Virus record (IMG/VR): IMGVR_UViG_2645728048_000030 | Source of the DNA: a virus | Lineage: Duplodnaviria > Heunggongvirae > Uroviricota > Caudoviricetes | Strand: one strand, 5' to 3' | Length of the DNA stretch: 35,944 nt | Part shown: positions 27,569 to 33,685 of the stretch, piece by piece | Numbering within the stretch: position 1 is the first letter of the stretch | How the letters are laid out: each line of letters starts with the position of its first letter | The notes under the pieces: generated by a model | The model's database searches: none | Told to the model about the DNA's origin: nothing | The model's input: only the letters and a program-made list of their open reading frames with translations | Made by a program: the position numbers and the translations under genes

Positions 27569-27958
27569 TTACAGAAGTGAGGGCTGGTACTGGCGGTATT
27601 TCAGCCGTCGCATCCGGCGAATGGCCTTGTAAACCGTATTGAAAGTGACACCATAACGGGTGGTCAGTTCGCTGACGTTGCGACCGTTAAAATCATTCCA
27701 GATACGCAAATCCCGAATCAGCGAGTCCAGAACCTGACCGCGTGGAATGTAGACCTGACCGCCGCCCAGATGCTTACAGATAGCCACAACAATCTCCAGT
27801 GAATGGGCAGGATCAACACCCAGCCGGGACAATTCCCCGCGCAGTAAATCGTTCAGCTCCGCCAGCAGTGCCGGAAAGCGTGACGTATCCTCTGCGGGAT
27901 TGTCAAGATGTGCCAGGATGGTGTCATCCTGCAAATCACCAAATAAATCTTCCGTCAT
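27569..27958 (-). CDS. mor: Middle operon regulator Mor
   Basis: 129 codons, recognised sequence; paralogue of C. Confidence 0.9.
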   Translation of the reverse strand: MTEDLFGDLQDDTILAHLDNPAEDTSRFPALLAELNDLLRGELSRLGVDPAHSLEIVVAICKHLGGGQVYIPRGQVLDSLIRDLRIWNDFNGRNVSELTTRYGVTFNTVYKAIRRMRRLKYRQYQPSLL

Positions 27959-28506
27959 TGTGCCATCCTCCGTGTCTTTCTGGCATGGGCATAAGCCGCC
28001 GTCATGGCATCATAGCCGCGCAGTTCACGCCCGGACGGACTGACTGGCAACGGAAGCCCGTGACGGGAAAAGGCTTCACGAATACAGCGGATATGCCACT
28101 GCTTGAGAGTTTCGAGAACAATCAACAGGGTGTCGCCATGACACCACGCCAGCGTGGAAACACCCTGTCCGCCATTACGTTTCGCCGTCAGGCGCTGAAC
28201 ATATTTATCCAGCGCCACATCACCGCCATCGGTAATAAAACCGTCTTCTGCCATCTGCTGCCAGACTTTGTATACCTTCTCGCGGGGCGTGACATGCCCC
28301 TTAAAGCGGCGACGTGGATGTTTATTCAGCTTCTTAAAGCCGCGTTCTTTCATGGCATCGAGCACCTGTTCCAGTTGCGTAACCGTCAGCTCGCGGCAAC
28401 TGATTTTGCCCGTTTTCTGCATCAGAAAAGCTCGGTAAGTGTCGTCGTCGAGTTGTAGCTCCCGACGGGCGACATGGATTAATTTAATCAGGGATGTGCG
28501 ATTCAT
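27955..28506 (-). CDS. gemA: GemA
   Basis: 183 codons immediately upstream of mor, with GGAGGT SD. Confidence 0.8.
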   Translation of the reverse strand: MNRTSLIKLIHVARRELQLDDDTYRAFLMQKTGKISCRELTVTQLEQVLDAMKERGFKKLNKHPRRRFKGHVTPREKVYKVWQQMAEDGFITDGGDVALDKYVQRLTAKRNGGQGVSTLAWCHGDTLLIVLETLKQWHIRCIREAFSRHGLPLPVSPSGRELRGYDAMTAAYAHARKTRRMAQ

Positions 28507-28575
28507 GATCGTACCTCCGGAAAGAGGCGGTGCTGCAACACCGCCTGAATTTACACATCAATCAGAGAGGATTTT

Positions 28576-28842
28576 ATGGAAAATAATGTACAACCTTATG
28601 ATGTTGCAGGTTATGCGATTGCATCAGCACTGGTGCGCCTTCTGGTGAAGAAGGCGATCATCACCGCAGAAGAGGGCCAGGCCATTTTCAGCTCTTCAGC
28701 AGAGATTTTAAAAGATGCGCCTGCAATAAGAACAAGCCGCCGCGAAAACATGCAACTGTCAAAGATCATGGAAGACATTATCAGTTCGTTAGACCCAGAT
28801 GCTGACGGATCTCAAAAGCCTCAAACACATGAGCGTCAGTAA
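28576..28842 (+). CDS. Candidate opposite-strand gene of unknown function
   Basis: 88 codons; ATG preceded by AGAGAGG about 5 nt upstream; sits in the gap upstream of gemA and overlaps the 3' end of the convergent ORF 28781..29083 by about 60 nt. Confidence 0.35.
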   Translation: MENNVQPYDVAGYAIASALVRLLVKKAIITAEEGQAIFSSSAEILKDAPAIRTSRRENMQLSKIMEDIISSLDPDADGSQKPQTHERQ

Positions 28843-29083
28843 CAATATCCTGGTCTGATAACCCCAGCCTGCGGCGGATGTACTCCTCGCGGGCTGTTTC
28901 ATTTTGCAGTGCCACTACTGTTTCCAGACGATTCATTTCGCGGTTGATAATGTCACGGACTTCTCTGGCGGTGAGATTATGCTTAATACCATATTCAACG
29001 ATAGCGCGAACACGTTCCAGCATCCCTTTTTCAGCCATGACGTTATCAATATTAAGGGGAGTAAATTTATCTTCATTGTTCAT
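28781..29083 (-). CDS. Hypothetical early protein
   Basis: 100 codons, start overlaps upstream stop (translational coupling). Confidence 0.6.
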   Translation of the reverse strand: MNNEDKFTPLNIDNVMAEKGMLERVRAIVEYGIKHNLTAREVRDIINREMNRLETVVALQNETAREEYIRRRLGLSDQDIVTDAHVFEAFEIRQHLGLTN

Positions 29084-29403
29084 TTTGCGGCCCTCAGAAT
29101 AAATTCAGGATAAAATTTCAGACTCATTTGCCGTAACACATCCAGTGCAGCAACGGCTGCTGATTTATCGTTGCCATCAGCAATAGCGCGGAGATTTTCA
29201 ATAATCCAGTGAGGACTCAGTGACTCAGCAATAATGCCAAACCGGTACGCCATGACCTCATCAATAGCTTTTTCATGAGACGTCTCATATACAAAATTCA
29301 CAAAGTCATGCACTTCTTTTTTCGGCAAACCACCGGCAATCAGCAGGGCGGCAAGCTCTTCTGATTTTGAAAATACACCATTATTCATATCACTCACCTT
29401 CAC
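29080..29403 (-). CDS. Hypothetical early protein
   Basis: 107 codons, tiled with neighbours. Confidence 0.6.
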   Translation of the reverse strand: MKVSDMNNGVFSKSEELAALLIAGGLPKKEVHDFVNFVYETSHEKAIDEVMAYRFGIIAESLSPHWIIENLRAIADGNDKSAAVAALDVLRQMSLKFYPEFILRAAK

Positions 29404-29572
29404 AATTCATGCACGCCGTGTCATCGCCCATATCACAGTGGTTGCATTTCTGCCCGCCACAATGAGGGCACTCTTTCAGATATTCAGGGGATTCATTACC
29501 GCAGGTCGGGCATTCCTGTTTCACCGTGGTAAATTTCCCCAGCCACGAATACGATGTTTCACTGTTTTCCAT
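29390..29572 (-). CDS. Small zinc-ribbon protein
   Basis: 60 codons with CPTCG...CPHCG...CNHC...CMNC. Confidence 0.5.
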   Translation of the reverse strand: MENSETSYSWLGKFTTVKQECPTCGNESPEYLKECPHCGGQKCNHCDMGDDTACMNCEGE

Positions 29573-30089
29573 TAGTTACCTCCGCCTGTTTTTGCGCCCG
29601 GATAAATTCGTCAGAAAGGATTTCAGTCATGCGGCCTTGCGCGGGTGTCATCCCCGTCATGACGTAAATCACATCACCAACACGGAACCACTGGAGCGGC
29701 CCGAATATTGTTGCGCTGAAATCCAGTCCCAGTGCGGGTAAAAGAGCGTCTGTGCGGGCGTAAGTGACCGGAATATTCTCCTGCCATATTTTCGCCAGCT
29801 CTCTTGCCTGCCCCCTGAGATGAGCAGGTATCCACGAAGTTCTGGGCCTGCAACTGTTACCTGATGCGGGCCGTTGTACGGTCCACAGCTCCCGCGAGAA
29901 GGGGCGCTCATTCCCCGGAAAATTCACACCATGAAAATGACGCCCACCAATACCTGTACTGAATACTGACCGGCAACCACAGTCCAGAACCTTATCAAGA
30001 TGGCGGGCTTCTTCGCGTAGTTTCAGGCAGTCCGCCATAAACTGGTCCCATGCCAGCAGTGCTGTGGGATTTGACGTTTTAAAAAACAT
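29559..30089 (-). CDS. Hypothetical early protein
   Basis: Internal ATG at codon 14 with GGAGGTG SD, overlapping the upstream stop as ATGA; 176 codons. Confidence 0.6.
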   Translation of the reverse strand: MFFKTSNPTALLAWDQFMADCLKLREEARHLDKVLDCGCRSVFSTGIGGRHFHGVNFPGNERPFSRELWTVQRPASGNSCRPRTSWIPAHLRGQARELAKIWQENIPVTYARTDALLPALGLDFSATIFGPLQWFRVGDVIYVMTGMTPAQGRMTEILSDEFIRAQKQAEVTNGKQ

Positions 30090-30619
30090 CACGCCACCTC
30101 CTGCACCGCTGCGGGAGCCGGAGAACAATCAAGAATGAGATAACGCAGTACATGGTCGGTGATATTCCAGGCGCTGGAACTGCAAATAAAACGCCCCAGC
30201 CGGATATCGATATAAGCCATCACAAAACGGGGCATTCCCTGTTCGCACATTCTGTTGTCCACTTCTGCAACGATGTGAACGGATTCACAGGTCAGCACGC
30301 CTGTTGCAAATTCTTTTGCCAGTGCCGGAATGGCATTGCCTTCCAGCCAGGGCAATGGGCGGCGGAAGGAACACCACGCGGCATCATCAACAGCAGACTG
30401 CTCAGTTGCGTTTCGTCTTACAGGCTGCTCTGTACGGGGACGCGGTACGTCGTAAAAACCATTAAGTTCAGTCAGCATTCCGGCATCAACCGCATCACGC
30501 AGGAAGTACACCATTGCGGAGGATGGCATCTGCATTTTTTCAGCCAGAACCCCGCAGGTCAGGCGTCCGTAAGCCCGTAATAATGTGCTGACACCATTCA
30601 GAATTTTTGCATCAACCAT
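30089..30619 (-). CDS. Hypothetical early protein with possible N-terminal winged-helix
   Basis: 176 codons, first ORF downstream of gam. Confidence 0.55.
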   Translation of the reverse strand: MVDAKILNGVSTLLRAYGRLTCGVLAEKMQMPSSAMVYFLRDAVDAGMLTELNGFYDVPRPRTEQPVRRNATEQSAVDDAAWCSFRRPLPWLEGNAIPALAKEFATGVLTCESVHIVAEVDNRMCEQGMPRFVMAYIDIRLGRFICSSSAWNITDHVLRYLILDCSPAPAAVQEVA

Positions 30620-30717
30620 GTTTTATTCCTCAGTAATCTGTTTCAGGCGCGAGCAATCCCCTGACGCATCGCGCCATAATTAAAAGAATGTGAATTAATT
30701 AAATATTAATGGTGGTA

Positions 30718-31242
30718 TTAAATACCTGCTTCCTGTTCAAACGGAATAATGGAAAAATCTTCAATTCCCGATTTAACCGTAATTCCGGCAACACCTGCGA
30801 CGGCTTTTGGTTCCAGTAAAATCGCCTCCTTGTTGATTTCCTGCTTCGTGCGAATAAAGCGTTGCAGGCCAAGACGCTCCAGCGTTTCCATTACGGCATC
30901 CACGCCGCGAATACTCACTGATGGCGGGCGTTGACGCCATGACACATCGCCGGTGACAAGATTTGCCGTCTTCACTTTGCCGCCGTTCGTCAGTTCGTCG
31001 CGGTTCGCTTCACACCATCCCTGAACGCCTTTTGAAAGGGTTTCAATATCGGTTTTAATCGGTGCAATCCGGGCCGCAAATTTCTCCGTAATTTCCGCGA
31101 TGGCATCATTCATTTCCGTTTCCAGACGTGATGCTTCGCGCTGTAAATCCCCGATGCGTTTAATATCGGTAATCACCGCATCGCGGTTTTGTGGCACATA
31201 AGCCGCTGCGGCACTTTTGATGCGTTTTGCTGGTTTAGCCAT
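30718..31242 (-). CDS. gam: Gam, host-nuclease inhibitor / DNA-end binding protein
   Basis: 174 codons, recognised sequence. Confidence 0.9.
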   Translation of the reverse strand: MAKPAKRIKSAAAAYVPQNRDAVITDIKRIGDLQREASRLETEMNDAIAEITEKFAARIAPIKTDIETLSKGVQGWCEANRDELTNGGKVKTANLVTGDVSWRQRPPSVSIRGVDAVMETLERLGLQRFIRTKQEINKEAILLEPKAVAGVAGITVKSGIEDFSIIPFEQEAGI

Positions 31243-31561: not shown

Positions 31562-32005
31562 TCAGTACAACAGAGGCTCGCGCAGTGATGCCGGAATATG
31601 CCGCAGCGATAACTGAACTGCTTTCAGGGCAAGCGAGGAATAACAGCAGCGCGCCCAGCCTTTTGCCATTAACCGGTAATCGCGCCAGATACGCTGCCAC
31701 ATATCACGGGCTTTCGGGTCTGATACACAGATGTATTCACGGTCCATGACGTACTCCCATAAATCCACGTTAAACGCATCGCCAGACGCAATGGCGCGGG
31801 ATATGCTTTCGCCACAATAACGCGCACAGATGCTGTAATGGTCGAAAGTAATTAGGTAAGTCTTTTCACCATAACCATCAACTTTCCGGGCGCAAATAAA
31901 CTCGCGTAATTCACCACCGTTGTTATTGCGTTCCTGAATTCGGATTAATGCCTGAATTTCATTTCGGATTTTGACGTTCATTGTCAGCGTTCCTTTCAGT
32001 GGCAT
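31562..32005 (-). CDS. Hypothetical early protein
   Basis: 147 codons, tiled with neighbours. Confidence 0.55.
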   Translation of the reverse strand: MPLKGTLTMNVKIRNEIQALIRIQERNNNGGELREFICARKVDGYGEKTYLITFDHYSICARYCGESISRAIASGDAFNVDLWEYVMDREYICVSDPKARDMWQRIWRDYRLMAKGWARCCYSSLALKAVQLSLRHIPASLREPLLY

Positions 32006-32259
32006 GTTTTTTCAACAGCCATTTCAGTGACACGGCCACCGGTGATGACACCATCGTTTTTCAAAATCTCAATAGCTTCATGGGCTGACTCATTAATTAC
32101 TTTCTGGCTTTTATTAAGCACCAGTAACGCCACCATGCCAGCAAGTGTACCCTCATCACCGTCCAGTTCCGCACTACCGTCCACCGCAATGCTGGTGCGC
32201 AAATTCCGTCCTTTAATTCCAGATACTGTATTTTTAATTTCAATAATTACTTTTGCCAT
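31996..32259 (-). CDS. Hypothetical early protein
   Basis: 87 codons, ATG with AAGGTG SD; the fully overlapping plus-strand ORF is rejected. Confidence 0.55.
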   Translation of the reverse strand: MAKVIIEIKNTVSGIKGRNLRTSIAVDGSAELDGDEGTLAGMVALLVLNKSQKVINESAHEAIEILKNDGVITGGRVTEMAVEKTCH

Positions 32260-32746: not shown

Positions 32747-33685
32747 TTAATTACGCAGCAGCGTTGAAATATCAACGTCCAGGTCTAATTCACGGAAAGC
32801 CTGACGCAGATAATCTTCGTTAACACGCTCACCTTTACCGTGAGCCGTCATGGCTGCAAGGCGAAGTGAATGATTCAGAATGCGAAGCGCACCTGGTTTC
32901 TGCGCAATCTGCTGTAATAACTCCAGTTCTTTTTCGCCGTTAATCTGCCAGGCATCCGCAATAGCTTTTACATCGGCTTTTTTGGTTTTATTAATTGCAG
33001 TGCGCTTTGCAATACGGGAAAACAGACGGGCAAATTCAACCGTTCTGTTACCCCCCGTCATATTTGAATAAACCCGGTGATTTCCCATCAGCACAAGGCC
33101 AATACGGGTTGATTCCTGTAACAGGCGGAGTTCTTCCAGAACTTCGGCACCAAGATGATCAGCTTCGTCGATGATAACCAGCCCCTGTGTACCTTCAAGG
33201 CGACGTCGCAGGGCGCGGGAGAGCGGCCCTTTACGGCGTGGTGCGTCATTCATTCCCAGCTCAAACGCCAGTTCAGTAAGACATTCCAGAACGCTGGCAC
33301 AGGATGGCGTAATGGTGATCATCCAGACATTGTTATTGGTGCGGCGATATTCACGGGCCGCTTCGGTTTTGCCCACACCAGGATTGCCACATACAACAGC
33401 AATACTTTCAGTCAGGCTGGCAAAACGCATACTTGTCCAGATTTGTTTTACCGTCTGCGTTTCCACAAAGCGGGGCGGTTCAGGTAGTTCTGCAACTGCA
33501 TGATATTTTTCCAGCCAGCGTTGCAGCATTTGTGAAACACGCTCGTTATCCCCGTTGTACTTATCATTGATAAAACTACTGATAGTTCCGGTAGAAAGTC
33601 CGCTCTCAAGAGCAATTTGTTTAAAGGTGGTTTCTTCATTTTCTACAAGCGTGCGCAGTCCTGCGCGAATATCGGAAATATTCAT
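32747..33685 (-). CDS. B: MuB, ATP-dependent target-DNA activator
   Basis: 312 codons; Walker A GNPGVGKT present; recognised. Confidence 0.92.
   Translation of the reverse strand: MNISDIRAGLRTLVENEETTFKQIALESGLSTGTISSFINDKYNGDNERVSQMLQRWLEKYHAVAELPEPPRFVETQTVKQIWTSMRFASLTESIAVVCGNPGVGKTEAAREYRRTNNNVWMITITPSCASVLECLTELAFELGMNDAPRRKGPLSRALRRRLEGTQGLVIIDEADHLGAEVLEELRLLQESTRIGLVLMGNHRVYSNMTGGNRTVEFARLFSRIAKRTAINKTKKADVKAIADAWQINGEKELELLQQIAQKPGALRILNHSLRLAAMTAHGKGERVNEDYLRQAFRELDLDVDISTLLRN

Follow-up and report, generated by a model that had tools for sequence, protein, structure and literature searches.

Candidate host-interaction modules between gam and gemA in the semi-essential early region of a Mu-family prophage

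Mu is the founding model for transposition, and the roles of the small genes in its semi-essential (SE) early region have been a question since the 1980s. To our knowledge, SE-region phenotypes have been described only for kil, gam, gem/mor and, recently, Mup07. What, then, do the genes between gam and gemA contribute? We addressed this question in a viral sequence of 35,944 nt (IMG/VR record IMGVR_UViG_2645728048_000030, hereafter the window), for which a preliminary description, made from the sequence alone, had reported five coupled ORFs in this interval. The SE region of Mu comprises 14 ORFs, whose functions are mostly unassigned (PMC3325207); Pe drives its transcription along with that of A and B, weakly even in lysogens (PMC3820752), and deletion of the region restores the viability of MuBam-infected cells (PMC3325207).

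Gene content of the gam–gemA interval

The window is a Mu-family prophage. At the DNA level it shares 95–96% identity with Mu, SfMu and vB_YpM_5, and gam, gemA, mor and B occupy the positions expected of a Mu-type early region, both in agreement with the initial assignment of this part to the SE region of a Mu-type phage. The flanking genes gam and gemA had been named correctly, and all five reported minus-strand ORFs are present between them. However, these five do not make up the whole interval, which also contains a sixth gene that the initial description had not listed, the orthologue of Mu gp15 (Mup15; 28576..28842, plus strand, 88 aa). Moreover, the ORFs presented as being of unknown function are already catalogued in databases, four as annotated genes of Mu and one as an annotated gene of SfMu. 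Starting from gam, they correspond to gp11 (30089..30619, 176 aa), gp12 (29559..30089, 176 aa from the ATG at 30089), gp13 (29390..29572, 60 aa), an SfMu gp14 orthologue that we refer to as cassette gene D (29080..29388, 102 aa from an ATG; 29080..29403, 107 aa from a GTG), and gp14 (28781..29083, 100 aa; formerly E15), all on the minus strand. Judged by protein identities of 90–99%, gp11–gp14 of the window are orthologues of Mu gp11–gp14.

Between gam and gemA, gene order, strands and coupling match those of Mu gp11–gp14 (Mup11–Mup14; formerly E10–E15) plus gp15, except that Mu lacks the extra gene D located between gp13 and gp14. The six-gene arrangement of the window recurs in vB_YpM_5/6, where both the 102-aa extra gene and the 88-aa gene on the antisense strand are present, and both SfMu gp12–gp16 and vB_YpM_5/6 share 95–96% DNA identity with the window across the whole interval. 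In SfMu, a further gene, of the DUF5420 type, lies between gam and gp11, and gp12 is either split or lacks an annotation. The array is an ordinary one for the Mu SE region.

The tight coupling by ATGA or short overlaps that had been described agrees with the junction sequences. The start codon of gp12 lies on the stop codon of gp11 (1-nt overlap, TGATG), gp12 and gp13 overlap by 14 nt, and D and gp14 overlap by ATGA; gp13 and D overlap by 14 nt if D starts at the GTG and are separated by 1 nt if it starts at the ATG. The ATG of D at 29388 has a better Shine-Dalgarno site than the GTG at 29403 and is the annotated start (102-aa form) in SfMu, in the Yersinia phages and in RefSeq E. coli. For gp12, the longest ORF begins at a TTG and encodes 189 aa, compared to 176 aa from the ATG. 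Each of the five ORFs is preceded by a GGAG-type ribosome-binding site.

All five ORFs match PHROG families (E 1e-44 to 1e-102), namely phrog_1949 for gp11 (E 5.9e-102), phrog_2314 for gp12 (E 3.5e-78, aa 1–173), phrog_5584 for gp13 (E 3.7e-44), phrog_1988 for D (E 2e-49) and phrog_6075 for gp14 (E 3e-54); gp15 matches phrog_8747 (E 1e-60). Homologues with only 32–60% identity are still full length, and median dN/dS values of 0.15–0.33 indicate purifying selection on the five ORFs (gam, 0.07). Together with the ribosome-binding sites, the translational coupling, invariant motifs that include the 8 Cys of gp13, and the confident AF2 model of gp12, these values refute the view that the ORFs are chance or decaying frames without function, to which we assign a negligible probability and for which little speaks other than the lack of any annotation, even though the split gp12 of SfMu indicates that individual copies can decay. 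Rates differ within the interval: gp11, gp12 and gp13 are fairly conserved (0.15–0.19), whereas D (0.30), gp14 (0.33) and gp15 evolve faster (0.30–0.36) than gam (0.07) or gemA (0.125).

The earlier statement that the sequences permit no functional assignment agrees with our searches of Pfam, PHROGs, PADLOC, NCBIfam and PDB (sequence and profile) and with two fold searches. For seven candidate proteins, Pfam, PHROGs, PADLOC and NCBIfam returned only Gp11_C and function-less PHROGs, and no enzyme, defence or housekeeping family was matched. No PADLOC-DB defence model reached significance for these seven proteins (best match, D to PDC-M42B, E 0.022). Searches of PDB sequences, using both single proteins and family profiles of gp11, gp12, gp13, D, gp14 and gp15 yielded nothing significant, and an Rfam scan over the whole window gave zero matches. 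Homology of all five to characterised Mu proteins with housekeeping roles was looked for and is absent; their homologues are the uncharacterised Mu gp11–gp14. Literature searches for functional data on Mup11–15 or DUF2513 returned none.

A variable slot with conserved boundaries

Among the 71 related loci with a complete gp11..gemA interval, the slot between gam and gemA occurs in 30 different gene orders and behaves as an array of exchangeable modules. A first module consists of gp11 (winged helix plus Gp11_C) with the translationally coupled gp12, a second of the eight-Cys mini-protein gp13, a third of a helical protein of roughly 100 aa of the D type and/or the gp14 type, and a fourth of a partner gene on the opposite strand, which in the window is gp15 converging on gp14. 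The interval is better treated as such modules (gp11 with gp12; gp13; D; gp14 with gp15) than as five independent ORFs. The gene families are confined to Mu-like prophages of Enterobacteriaceae, and many related prophages lack gp12, gp13, gp14 and gp15.

Both edges of the slot are non-coding. The downstream boundary is marked by a GC-rich hairpin with a T/C tract (GGCGGTG-ttgcag-CACCGCC; 28519..28545, minus strand, with the hairpin at 28526..28545) directly upstream of the gemA ribosome-binding site. This hairpin is conserved in 14 distinct upstream contexts, with 97.9% of cells paired and one compensatory change (U-A to C-G), and it is present with or without gp15; the T-run following it is stronger in relatives than in the window. 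The upstream boundary is marked by the spacer between gam and gp11 (30620..30717, minus strand), 98 nt of nearly invariant, AT-rich, non-coding sequence that contains the inverted repeat GGCGCGA...TCGCGCC. In SfMu, the DUF5420 gene sits in the corresponding interval.

Small proteins from the early regions of other transposable phages are known to act on the host: Tip of D3112 and Aqs1 of DMS3, both from Pseudomonas phages, bind and inhibit PilB, a pilus ATPase, and LasR, a regulator of quorum sensing, respectively. Both are unrelated in sequence to the five ORFs and act in a different host genus. A precedent from Mu itself is Mup07 (E6), identical to gnarl2 (Silas et al., Nat Commun 2025, PMC12373910). 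It is encoded in the same operon and region, is likewise small, accessory and non-enzymatic, and has been shown experimentally to alter the host O-antigen/LPS. The window encodes its orthologue at 31996..32259 (97.7% identical), which is not related by sequence to the five ORFs. The mosaic behavior of the slot and the Mup07/gnarl2 precedent both fit the earlier suggestion that early accessory genes of this kind may have the host as their target.

We consider it slightly more probable than its negation that the five ORFs, genuine genes of the early (Pe) operon, serve as exchangeable, non-enzymatic host-interaction modules, and we infer the mechanism from size, fold, context and analogy. These small proteins would be made early after induction or infection and would bind host (or phage) macromolecules stoichiometrically; this binding would tune host physiology or defence and boost Mu development, and the proteins would not be housekeeping replication or regulatory factors. 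The dN/dS values of gp11, gp12 and gp13 speak against a host-interaction role, since they lack the signature of an arms race.

A more specific and rather unlikely alternative is that the slot is a counter-defence island, in which at least one of the five proteins (and/or gp15) inhibits restriction, abortive infection or nuclease–helicase systems. The hypervariable cassette content, the narrow, lineage-specific distribution and the raised dN/dS of D, gp14 and gp15 would fit such a role, as would the small size and acidity of the proteins. Furthermore, the slot adjoins gam, which encodes a RecBCD blocker, and anti-defence genes cluster in other phages; for other phage genes, Mup07 of Mu among them, the underlying logic of accessory regions has been validated. 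However, searches of the PDB linked none of the proteins to a described anti-defence protein or fold: gp11 and gp12 were compared with all solved structures by fold as well, with no match beyond the winged helix of gp11, and gp13, D and gp14 were compared by sequence profile. Restriction alleviation of the Lar type is far below threshold (see gp13 below), the conserved gp11, gp12 and gp13 are not fast-evolving, and Mup11–15 do not appear among the accessory genes in the accessible part of the supplements to the screen by Silas et al. Any module found to counter or confer immunity would extend the repertoire of phage–host conflict in Enterobacteriaceae by a new family.

gp11, gp12 and gp13

The most constant gene of the slot is gp11, which adjoins gam across the 98-nt spacer and holds the equivalent position in Mu; in most of the 89 fetched loci, gam lies upstream of gp11, directly or with one inserted gene. 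Among species-representative genomes, the gp11 family was found only in Citrobacter braakii. An N-terminal winged helix (aa 1–62) and a C-terminal Gp11_C domain (about aa 82–170), joined by a variable linker (aa 63–81), make up the protein; the Gp11_C domain matches PF25754 over the full profile (134.9 bits, cut-off 27; aa 90–167). Fold searches bore out the winged-helix-like N-terminus that had been noted for this ORF, and they returned no structural match for the C-terminal domain.

The winged helix resembles those of MarR/ArsR and Zalpha proteins in fold at 7–25% sequence identity, and no Pfam HTH family was matched by gp11. It has a net charge of +1, and its helix 3, the 'recognition' helix, is acidic and hydrophobic, whereas this helix is usually basic in the DNA-binding regulators of the MarR/ArsR type. 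A Zalpha identity was not adopted, as the match is no better than that to MarR/ArsR and the signature of Asn/Tyr in helix 3 and Trp in the wing is out of register. With the full-length protein, Foldseek returned low-probability matches to BrxR, GntR and AsnC types. The winged helix could bind DNA, which would make gp11 a regulator and not a binder of host proteins.

Wherever gp12 occurs among the 71 loci, it lies directly downstream of gp11, and the two proteins probably act as a pair. All 46 gp12 homologues carry PF26885 according to their precomputed annotation. The AF2 model of gp12 is confident, and its comparison with solved structures matched neither an enzyme-like nor a known fold. The protein has a confidently predicted fold that has no relative among solved structures and is apparently new.

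The 60-aa gp13, of which 57 residues are identical to Mu gp13, had been described as a four-Cys zinc ribbon. The cysteine count has to be corrected to eight, arranged in four CxxC motifs that are invariant across the family alignment. Membership of the family was judged by these four motifs plus a CDMGD motif in a protein of 45–60 aa; in the alignment, CDMGD is invariant as well (CDMGDD in 8 of 9 sequences). Because all eight Cys are invariant, two zinc sites are favored over a single four-Cys ribbon, and gp13 probably binds two zinc ions. It is acidic (pI 4.5, net charge −7) and rare, with only 14 clusters in 5.8 billion proteins. No Pfam fusion partner of the zinc module was found in these clusters, and a single fusion was seen (locus L017, 252 aa), which has an additional N-terminal part.

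The best matches of gp13 are other small, Cys-rich zinc modules, the E. coli zinc-finger gyrase inhibitor YacG, the zinc domain of DnaJ and Lar, all of which are weak and below family thresholds. An assignment to the DnaJ CXXCXGXG family (PF00684) was rejected at 19.2 bits versus a cut-off of 32.7, and only 1 of the 4 CxxC motifs (CPHCGGQK) approaches CxxCxGxG; Lar was rejected for PF14354 (11.8 versus 28.6 bits) and TIGR03655 (14.9 versus 39.6 bits). In PDB searches with the family profile, YacG appeared with E-values of 0.038–0.053 among many generic zinc ribbons and over the zinc-binding stretch only, which is not significant and is typical of any CxxC...CxxC peptide. Furthermore, only one four-Cys site is present in each of YacG and Lar, in contrast to the four CxxC motifs and the CDMGD motif of gp13. 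In the host-interaction reading, gp13 probably acts by binding and inhibiting a conserved target.

The constancy of gp11 and its nucleic-acid-binding type of fold bear on another reading, which we regard as unlikely: gp11 and gp12, perhaps with gp13, would constitute the 'arm' function, defined by genetics and never cloned, that boosts replicative transposition of Mu and that we take to lie between gam and gem. Their targets could be nucleoid, gyrase or replisome factors of the host, and gp13 could be a YacG-like gyrase inhibitor. The replication of Mu and mini-Mu is amplified by functions located between genes B and C, later ascribed to the 'arm' product (PMC10052514), and the neighboring gemA has been reported to be genetically linked to GyrB (Abbes et al. 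2001, cited in PMC12407980); the best PDB matches of the gp13 profile partly are YacG. However, that match is not significant, the gp11 winged helix carries just one net positive charge besides its acidic/hydrophobic 'recognition' helix, and our literature search found no map position of arm within the B–C interval.

D, gp14 and the antisense gene gp15

Cassette gene D, found in SfMu and vB_YpM_5/6, is missing from Mu and D108; 105 of its 107 residues are identical to those of its SfMu counterpart (SfMu gp14). Its family is represented by only 10 clusters in 1.84 billion proteins and shares the conserved motif AESLSPxWIIEELRxIAxGxDKxAAVAALDVL.

The gp14 protein is identical to Mu gp14 at 99 of 100 residues, and its family was not found among species-representative genomes. 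On the opposite strand, gp15 runs divergently from gemA and towards gp14, and the 3' ends of gp14 and gp15 overlap by 62 nt. It is annotated as Mup15 in NC_000929 and is also found in SfMu, vB_YpM_5 and RefSeq E. coli; its homologues, which share 12–51% identity, occupy an equivalent position and invariably lie on the antisense strand. Both genes are co-inherited in 28 of the 29 gp14-bearing loci, down to identities of 23% (gp14) and 12% (gp15), with the co-occurrence statistics being inflated by the common ancestry of the loci. Functionally, gp14 is probably tied to gp15, e.g., as its antagonist or partner.

The GenBank record of Mu (AF083977) instead lists a 55-aa sense ORF, Mu_54, where the antisense gp15 stands. 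The frame comparison favors gp15, with a BLOSUM62 sum of 172 versus 109 for the sense-strand frame; codon periodicity cannot discriminate the two, since their third positions coincide. The possibility that gp15 is a shadow ORF of Mu_54 was rejected on the basis of its better-conserved frame and of homologues that keep position and orientation down to 12% identity. In the Mu annotation, gp15 should therefore be restored in place of Mu_54.

Since they are located on opposite strands, gp14 and gp15 are probably expressed under opposite conditions, which remains a conjecture because neither a sigma-70 scan nor inspection by eye found a promoter for gp15. A type II toxin–antitoxin system was rejected, as the genes are convergent instead of co-directional and have no Pfam, PADLOC or NCBIfam match. 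We consider it possible, albeit with low probability, that gp14 and gp15 form a new two-gene prophage module, with gp11–gp12 separately providing the Mu 'arm' function. In such a module, gp15 could be expressed in the lysogen while the early operon is silent and could confer a host-protecting, exclusion or lysogeny-stabilising function, which gp14 from the early operon could neutralise upon induction. In related prophages, a D-type protein and an antisense DUF2513 gene make up an analogous pair.

The convergent overlap would also favor transcriptional interference, and gp14/gp15 might accordingly be a regulatory pair in a phage-internal circuit with gp11 as a transcription factor, which would control the passage of early transcripts into gemA–mor or make lysogeny more stable via the hairpin and spacer sites. 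The conserved spacer upstream of gp11 and the conserved hairpin that separates gp15 from the divergent gemA could provide such sites, and gp11 has a winged-helix fold in an overall architecture that resembles one-component regulators in the low-probability Foldseek matches. Yet we deem this reading highly improbable. The regulatory circuit of Mu (c, ner, mor, C) needs none of these genes to be genetically complete. Moreover, gp12, gp13, gp14 and gp15 are absent altogether from many related prophages, the hairpin is kept regardless of the presence of gp15, and SE-region deletions are viable (PMC3325207). Exchangeable host-interaction modules remain our preferred reading of the five genes.

Five genes in the semi-essential early region

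The window is, to judge from its sequence, a Mu-family (Muvirus) phage or prophage in reverse orientation, because gene layout and matches to known phages and genomes point the same way. The ORF list around the gene set places MuB (32747..33685), the kil-region ORFs, gam (30718..31242), gemA (27955..28506), and mor (27569..27958) on the minus strand. In megablast searches, 28500..30720 was matched by Yersinia phages vB_YpM_5/6 (100% coverage, 95.9% identity), Shigella phage SfMu (100%, 95.0%), Mu (87%, 95.3%), and D108 (62% coverage). Furthermore, matches to this segment were found in 90 of 5,426 complete E. coli genomes, with coverage falling into discrete classes (100, 87, about 65, 50, and 28%), and the gam-to-mor proteins of one IMG/VR contig (L010) are all identical to those of the window. 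Layout and megablast thus bear out the preliminary description, which had assigned five tiled ORFs to the semi-essential early (SE) region of a Mu-type phage.

All five ORFs were found on the minus strand as originally placed in the interval between gam and gemA (the slot): gp11 (30089..30619), gp12 (29559..30089), gp13 (29390..29572), a cassette gene termed D (29080..29388), and gp14 (28781..29083). Their tight coupling was confirmed as well, with consecutive overlaps of 1, 14, 14 (or a 1-nt spacer), and 4 nt, and a GGAG-type site at every start. The gp12 ORF has 176 codons when read from the ATG at 30089, the A of which also ends the gp11 stop codon (TGATG); the longest ORF starts at a TTG upstream of it. 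D has 107 codons from a GTG or 102 from the ATG at 29388; the latter is preceded by the ribosome-binding site GAAGGTGAG and is the start chosen in the SfMu, vB_YpM_5, and RefSeq E. coli annotations. Each of the five ORFs has a PHROG match (E 1e-44 to 1e-102), and homologs stay full-length down to 32–60% identity. Median dN/dS values against related loci (Nei–Gojobori) were 0.185 for gp11, 0.15 for gp12, 0.16 for gp13, 0.30 for D, and 0.33 for gp14, compared to 0.07 for gam and 0.125 for gemA. PHROG matches, full-length homologs, and dN/dS rule out chance reading frames; the five genes are real, selected, and co-transcribed, and it is barely conceivable that they serve no function.

According to the Mu records, Mu counterparts exist for gp11 (merging the old E10–E12; 159/176 residues identical), gp12 (E13; 182/189 for the TTG-initiated ORF), gp13 (E14; 57/60), and gp14 (E15; 99/100). 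D is without a counterpart in Mu or D108 and corresponds to SfMu gp14/vB_YpM_5_00021 (105–106/107 identical). All five are known Mu/SfMu genes, annotated as hypothetical in several public records and uncharacterized, and the finding as first described is therefore an ordinary one. The C-terminal domain of gp11 corresponds to Pfam PF25754 (134.9 bits), and PF26885 is listed in the precomputed annotation of gp12 homologs; the predicted fold of gp12 is apparently new. The gp12 region of SfMu (L002, 2573..3088) is unannotated and holds two ORF fragments, reflecting either a gene disruption in SfMu or a sequencing frameshift.

An antisense gene and the borders of the slot

The preliminary description listed five ORFs for the slot, which is not filled by these alone. 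A sixth gene, gp15 (28576..28842, 88 aa), lies on the plus strand between gp14 and gemA and is included in the SfMu, vB_YpM_5, RefSeq Mu (Mup15), and PGAP E. coli annotations. Its ribosome-binding site is GAGAGGA, and it shares 62 nt with the 3' end of gp14. The updated GenBank record of Mu instead lists a sense-strand ORF of 55 aa, Mu_54, whose frame (28611..28778, minus strand) is overlapped by gp15. The third codon positions of both frames coincide (shadow-ORF geometry), and therefore codon periodicity cannot separate them. When the window was compared with a relative of 65.5% identity (L031), the gp15 frame was free of stops, with 50% amino acid identity and a BLOSUM62 sum of 172, whereas the Mu_54 frame reached 42% and a sum of 109. 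A PHROG match exists for the gp15 frame alone, and only this frame has homologs at the corresponding position and in the same orientation, with identities down to 12%. From the better-conserved frame, the PHROG match, and the co-located homologs, we conclude that gp15 is the real gene; Mu_54, less conserved and lacking a PHROG match, looks like a shadow ORF.

Two conserved noncoding elements bound the slot. On the gam side, the 98-nt spacer between gam and gp11 (30620..30717) hardly varies even in loci whose gp11 is just 81–85% identical; it includes an AT-rich stretch and the inverted repeat GGCGCGA...TCGCGCC. SfMu carries an extra DUF5420 gene between gam and gp11, and the distance between both genes is about 640–670 nt in many other loci. 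On the gemA side, a GC-rich hairpin (GGCGGTG/CACCGCC) with a T/C tract (28519..28545, minus strand) immediately precedes the gemA Shine-Dalgarno sequence. It persists in 14 different upstream contexts (97.9% of cells paired, one compensatory change) and is terminator-like on the early-operon strand. The hairpin lies inside a region annotated in Mu as ‘semi-early promoter’.

Modular organization in related phages

Iterated HMMs for each family were run against all ORFs of 80 IMG/VR loci (retrieved with a gp11 profile), nine annotated loci, and the window. A complete gp11..gemA interval was present in 71 loci, which display 30 gene orders; the slot is modular and exchangeable in its organization, with two tight linkages. 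gp12 is present in 47 loci and begins at the gp11 stop in all of them. gp14 is accompanied by gp15 in 28 loci and stands alone in 1, and no locus has gp15 alone (Fisher p 6e-19, inflated by the shared ancestry of the loci); the sole locus with gp14 alone (L027) shows a clean deletion between TGAT microhomologies. This pairing is found in at least six lineages, at identities down to 23% (gp14) and 12% (gp15), and is always convergent with a 3' overlap of 20–71 nt. gp13 is followed by a gene of the gp14 type (24 loci) or of the D type.

In 16 loci, among them the annotated E. coli SE11 prophage (L006, 2563..2979), L048 (3419..4099), L035, L086, L017, and L016, an antisense DUF2513 gene converges on the D-type gene with the geometry seen for gp15 and gp14. 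These pairs overlap at their 3' ends just upstream of gemA, and their proteins are unrelated to gp14/gp15. Other cassettes found in the slot had no Pfam assignment. In one IMG/VR locus (L033, 4503..5707), a two-ORF insertion that, judged from its translated sequence, looks like an IS3-family transposase interrupts a cassette gene.

Possible roles of the slot proteins

The 60-aa gp13, previously described as a four-Cys zinc ribbon, contains eight cysteines, which form four CxxC motifs and are invariant across the family, alongside a CDMGD motif; it has a pI of 4.5 and its family comprises 14 clusters. D carries a conserved helical motif, is represented by 10 clusters among 1.84 billion proteins, and gave ARM/HEAT-like matches only, none of them significant. 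gp14 is a helical protein without a match in PDB. PADLOC and NCBIfam returned nothing for gp13, D, and gp14. The gene families are narrow, prophage-specific, and devoid of enzyme-like features. The modest gain over the preliminary description lies in two corrections (eight cysteines in gp13; gp15 in place of Mu_54), the modular layout, the co-inheritance of gp14 with gp15, and the seemingly novel gp12 fold. In some loci, such as L017 (4467..5225), the gp13 zinc module is fused to an N-terminal part, in L017 one of ~190 aa that is probably phrog_6418. In Salmonella-type loci (e.g., L054, 5926..6066), this module is 88–92% identical, compared to 45–67% for gam, gp11, gp12, and gemA, which points to an exchange in the recent past or to very strong constraint.

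We lean slightly toward a joint reading in which the slot proteins would be small and bind macromolecules of the host or the phage during early development: gp11 would work together with gp12, gp13 would be an inhibitor-type mini-protein with probably two bound zinc ions, and gp14 would oppose or partner gp15 functionally. The alternatives are not fully exclusive. A dedicated counter-defense role seems unlikely. Mu replication is amplified by functions between B and C, later ascribed to the ‘arm’ gene product (PMC10052514); no paper linking arm to a sequenced ORF was found in the literature, and every match of gp13 to DnaJ-type, Lar, and YacG zinc modules was sub-threshold. We regard an arm or DNA-transaction role, including YacG-like action of gp13, as doubtful, and are similarly hesitant to propose that gp14/gp15 form a novel convergent module of two genes and that gp11–gp12 may be arm. 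That the slot proteins serve phage-internal regulation strikes us as very improbable.

The SE region is reported to comprise 14 ORFs of mostly unknown function, and deleting it restored the viability of MuBam-infected cells (PMC3325207). It lies within the long Pe transcript, with weak transcription in lysogens (PMC3820752). Mup11–15 were not found in the accessible part of the supplements of the gnarl2 study (PMC12373910), and our searches revealed no other trace of them in the literature. In that study, the SE-region mini-protein Mup07 (E6), recently named gnarl2, was shown to alter host LPS/O-antigen (PMC12373910). Its ortholog in the window (31996..32259, minus strand) is 97.7% identical, and this is the only recent functional assignment that we found for a small ORF hereabouts.
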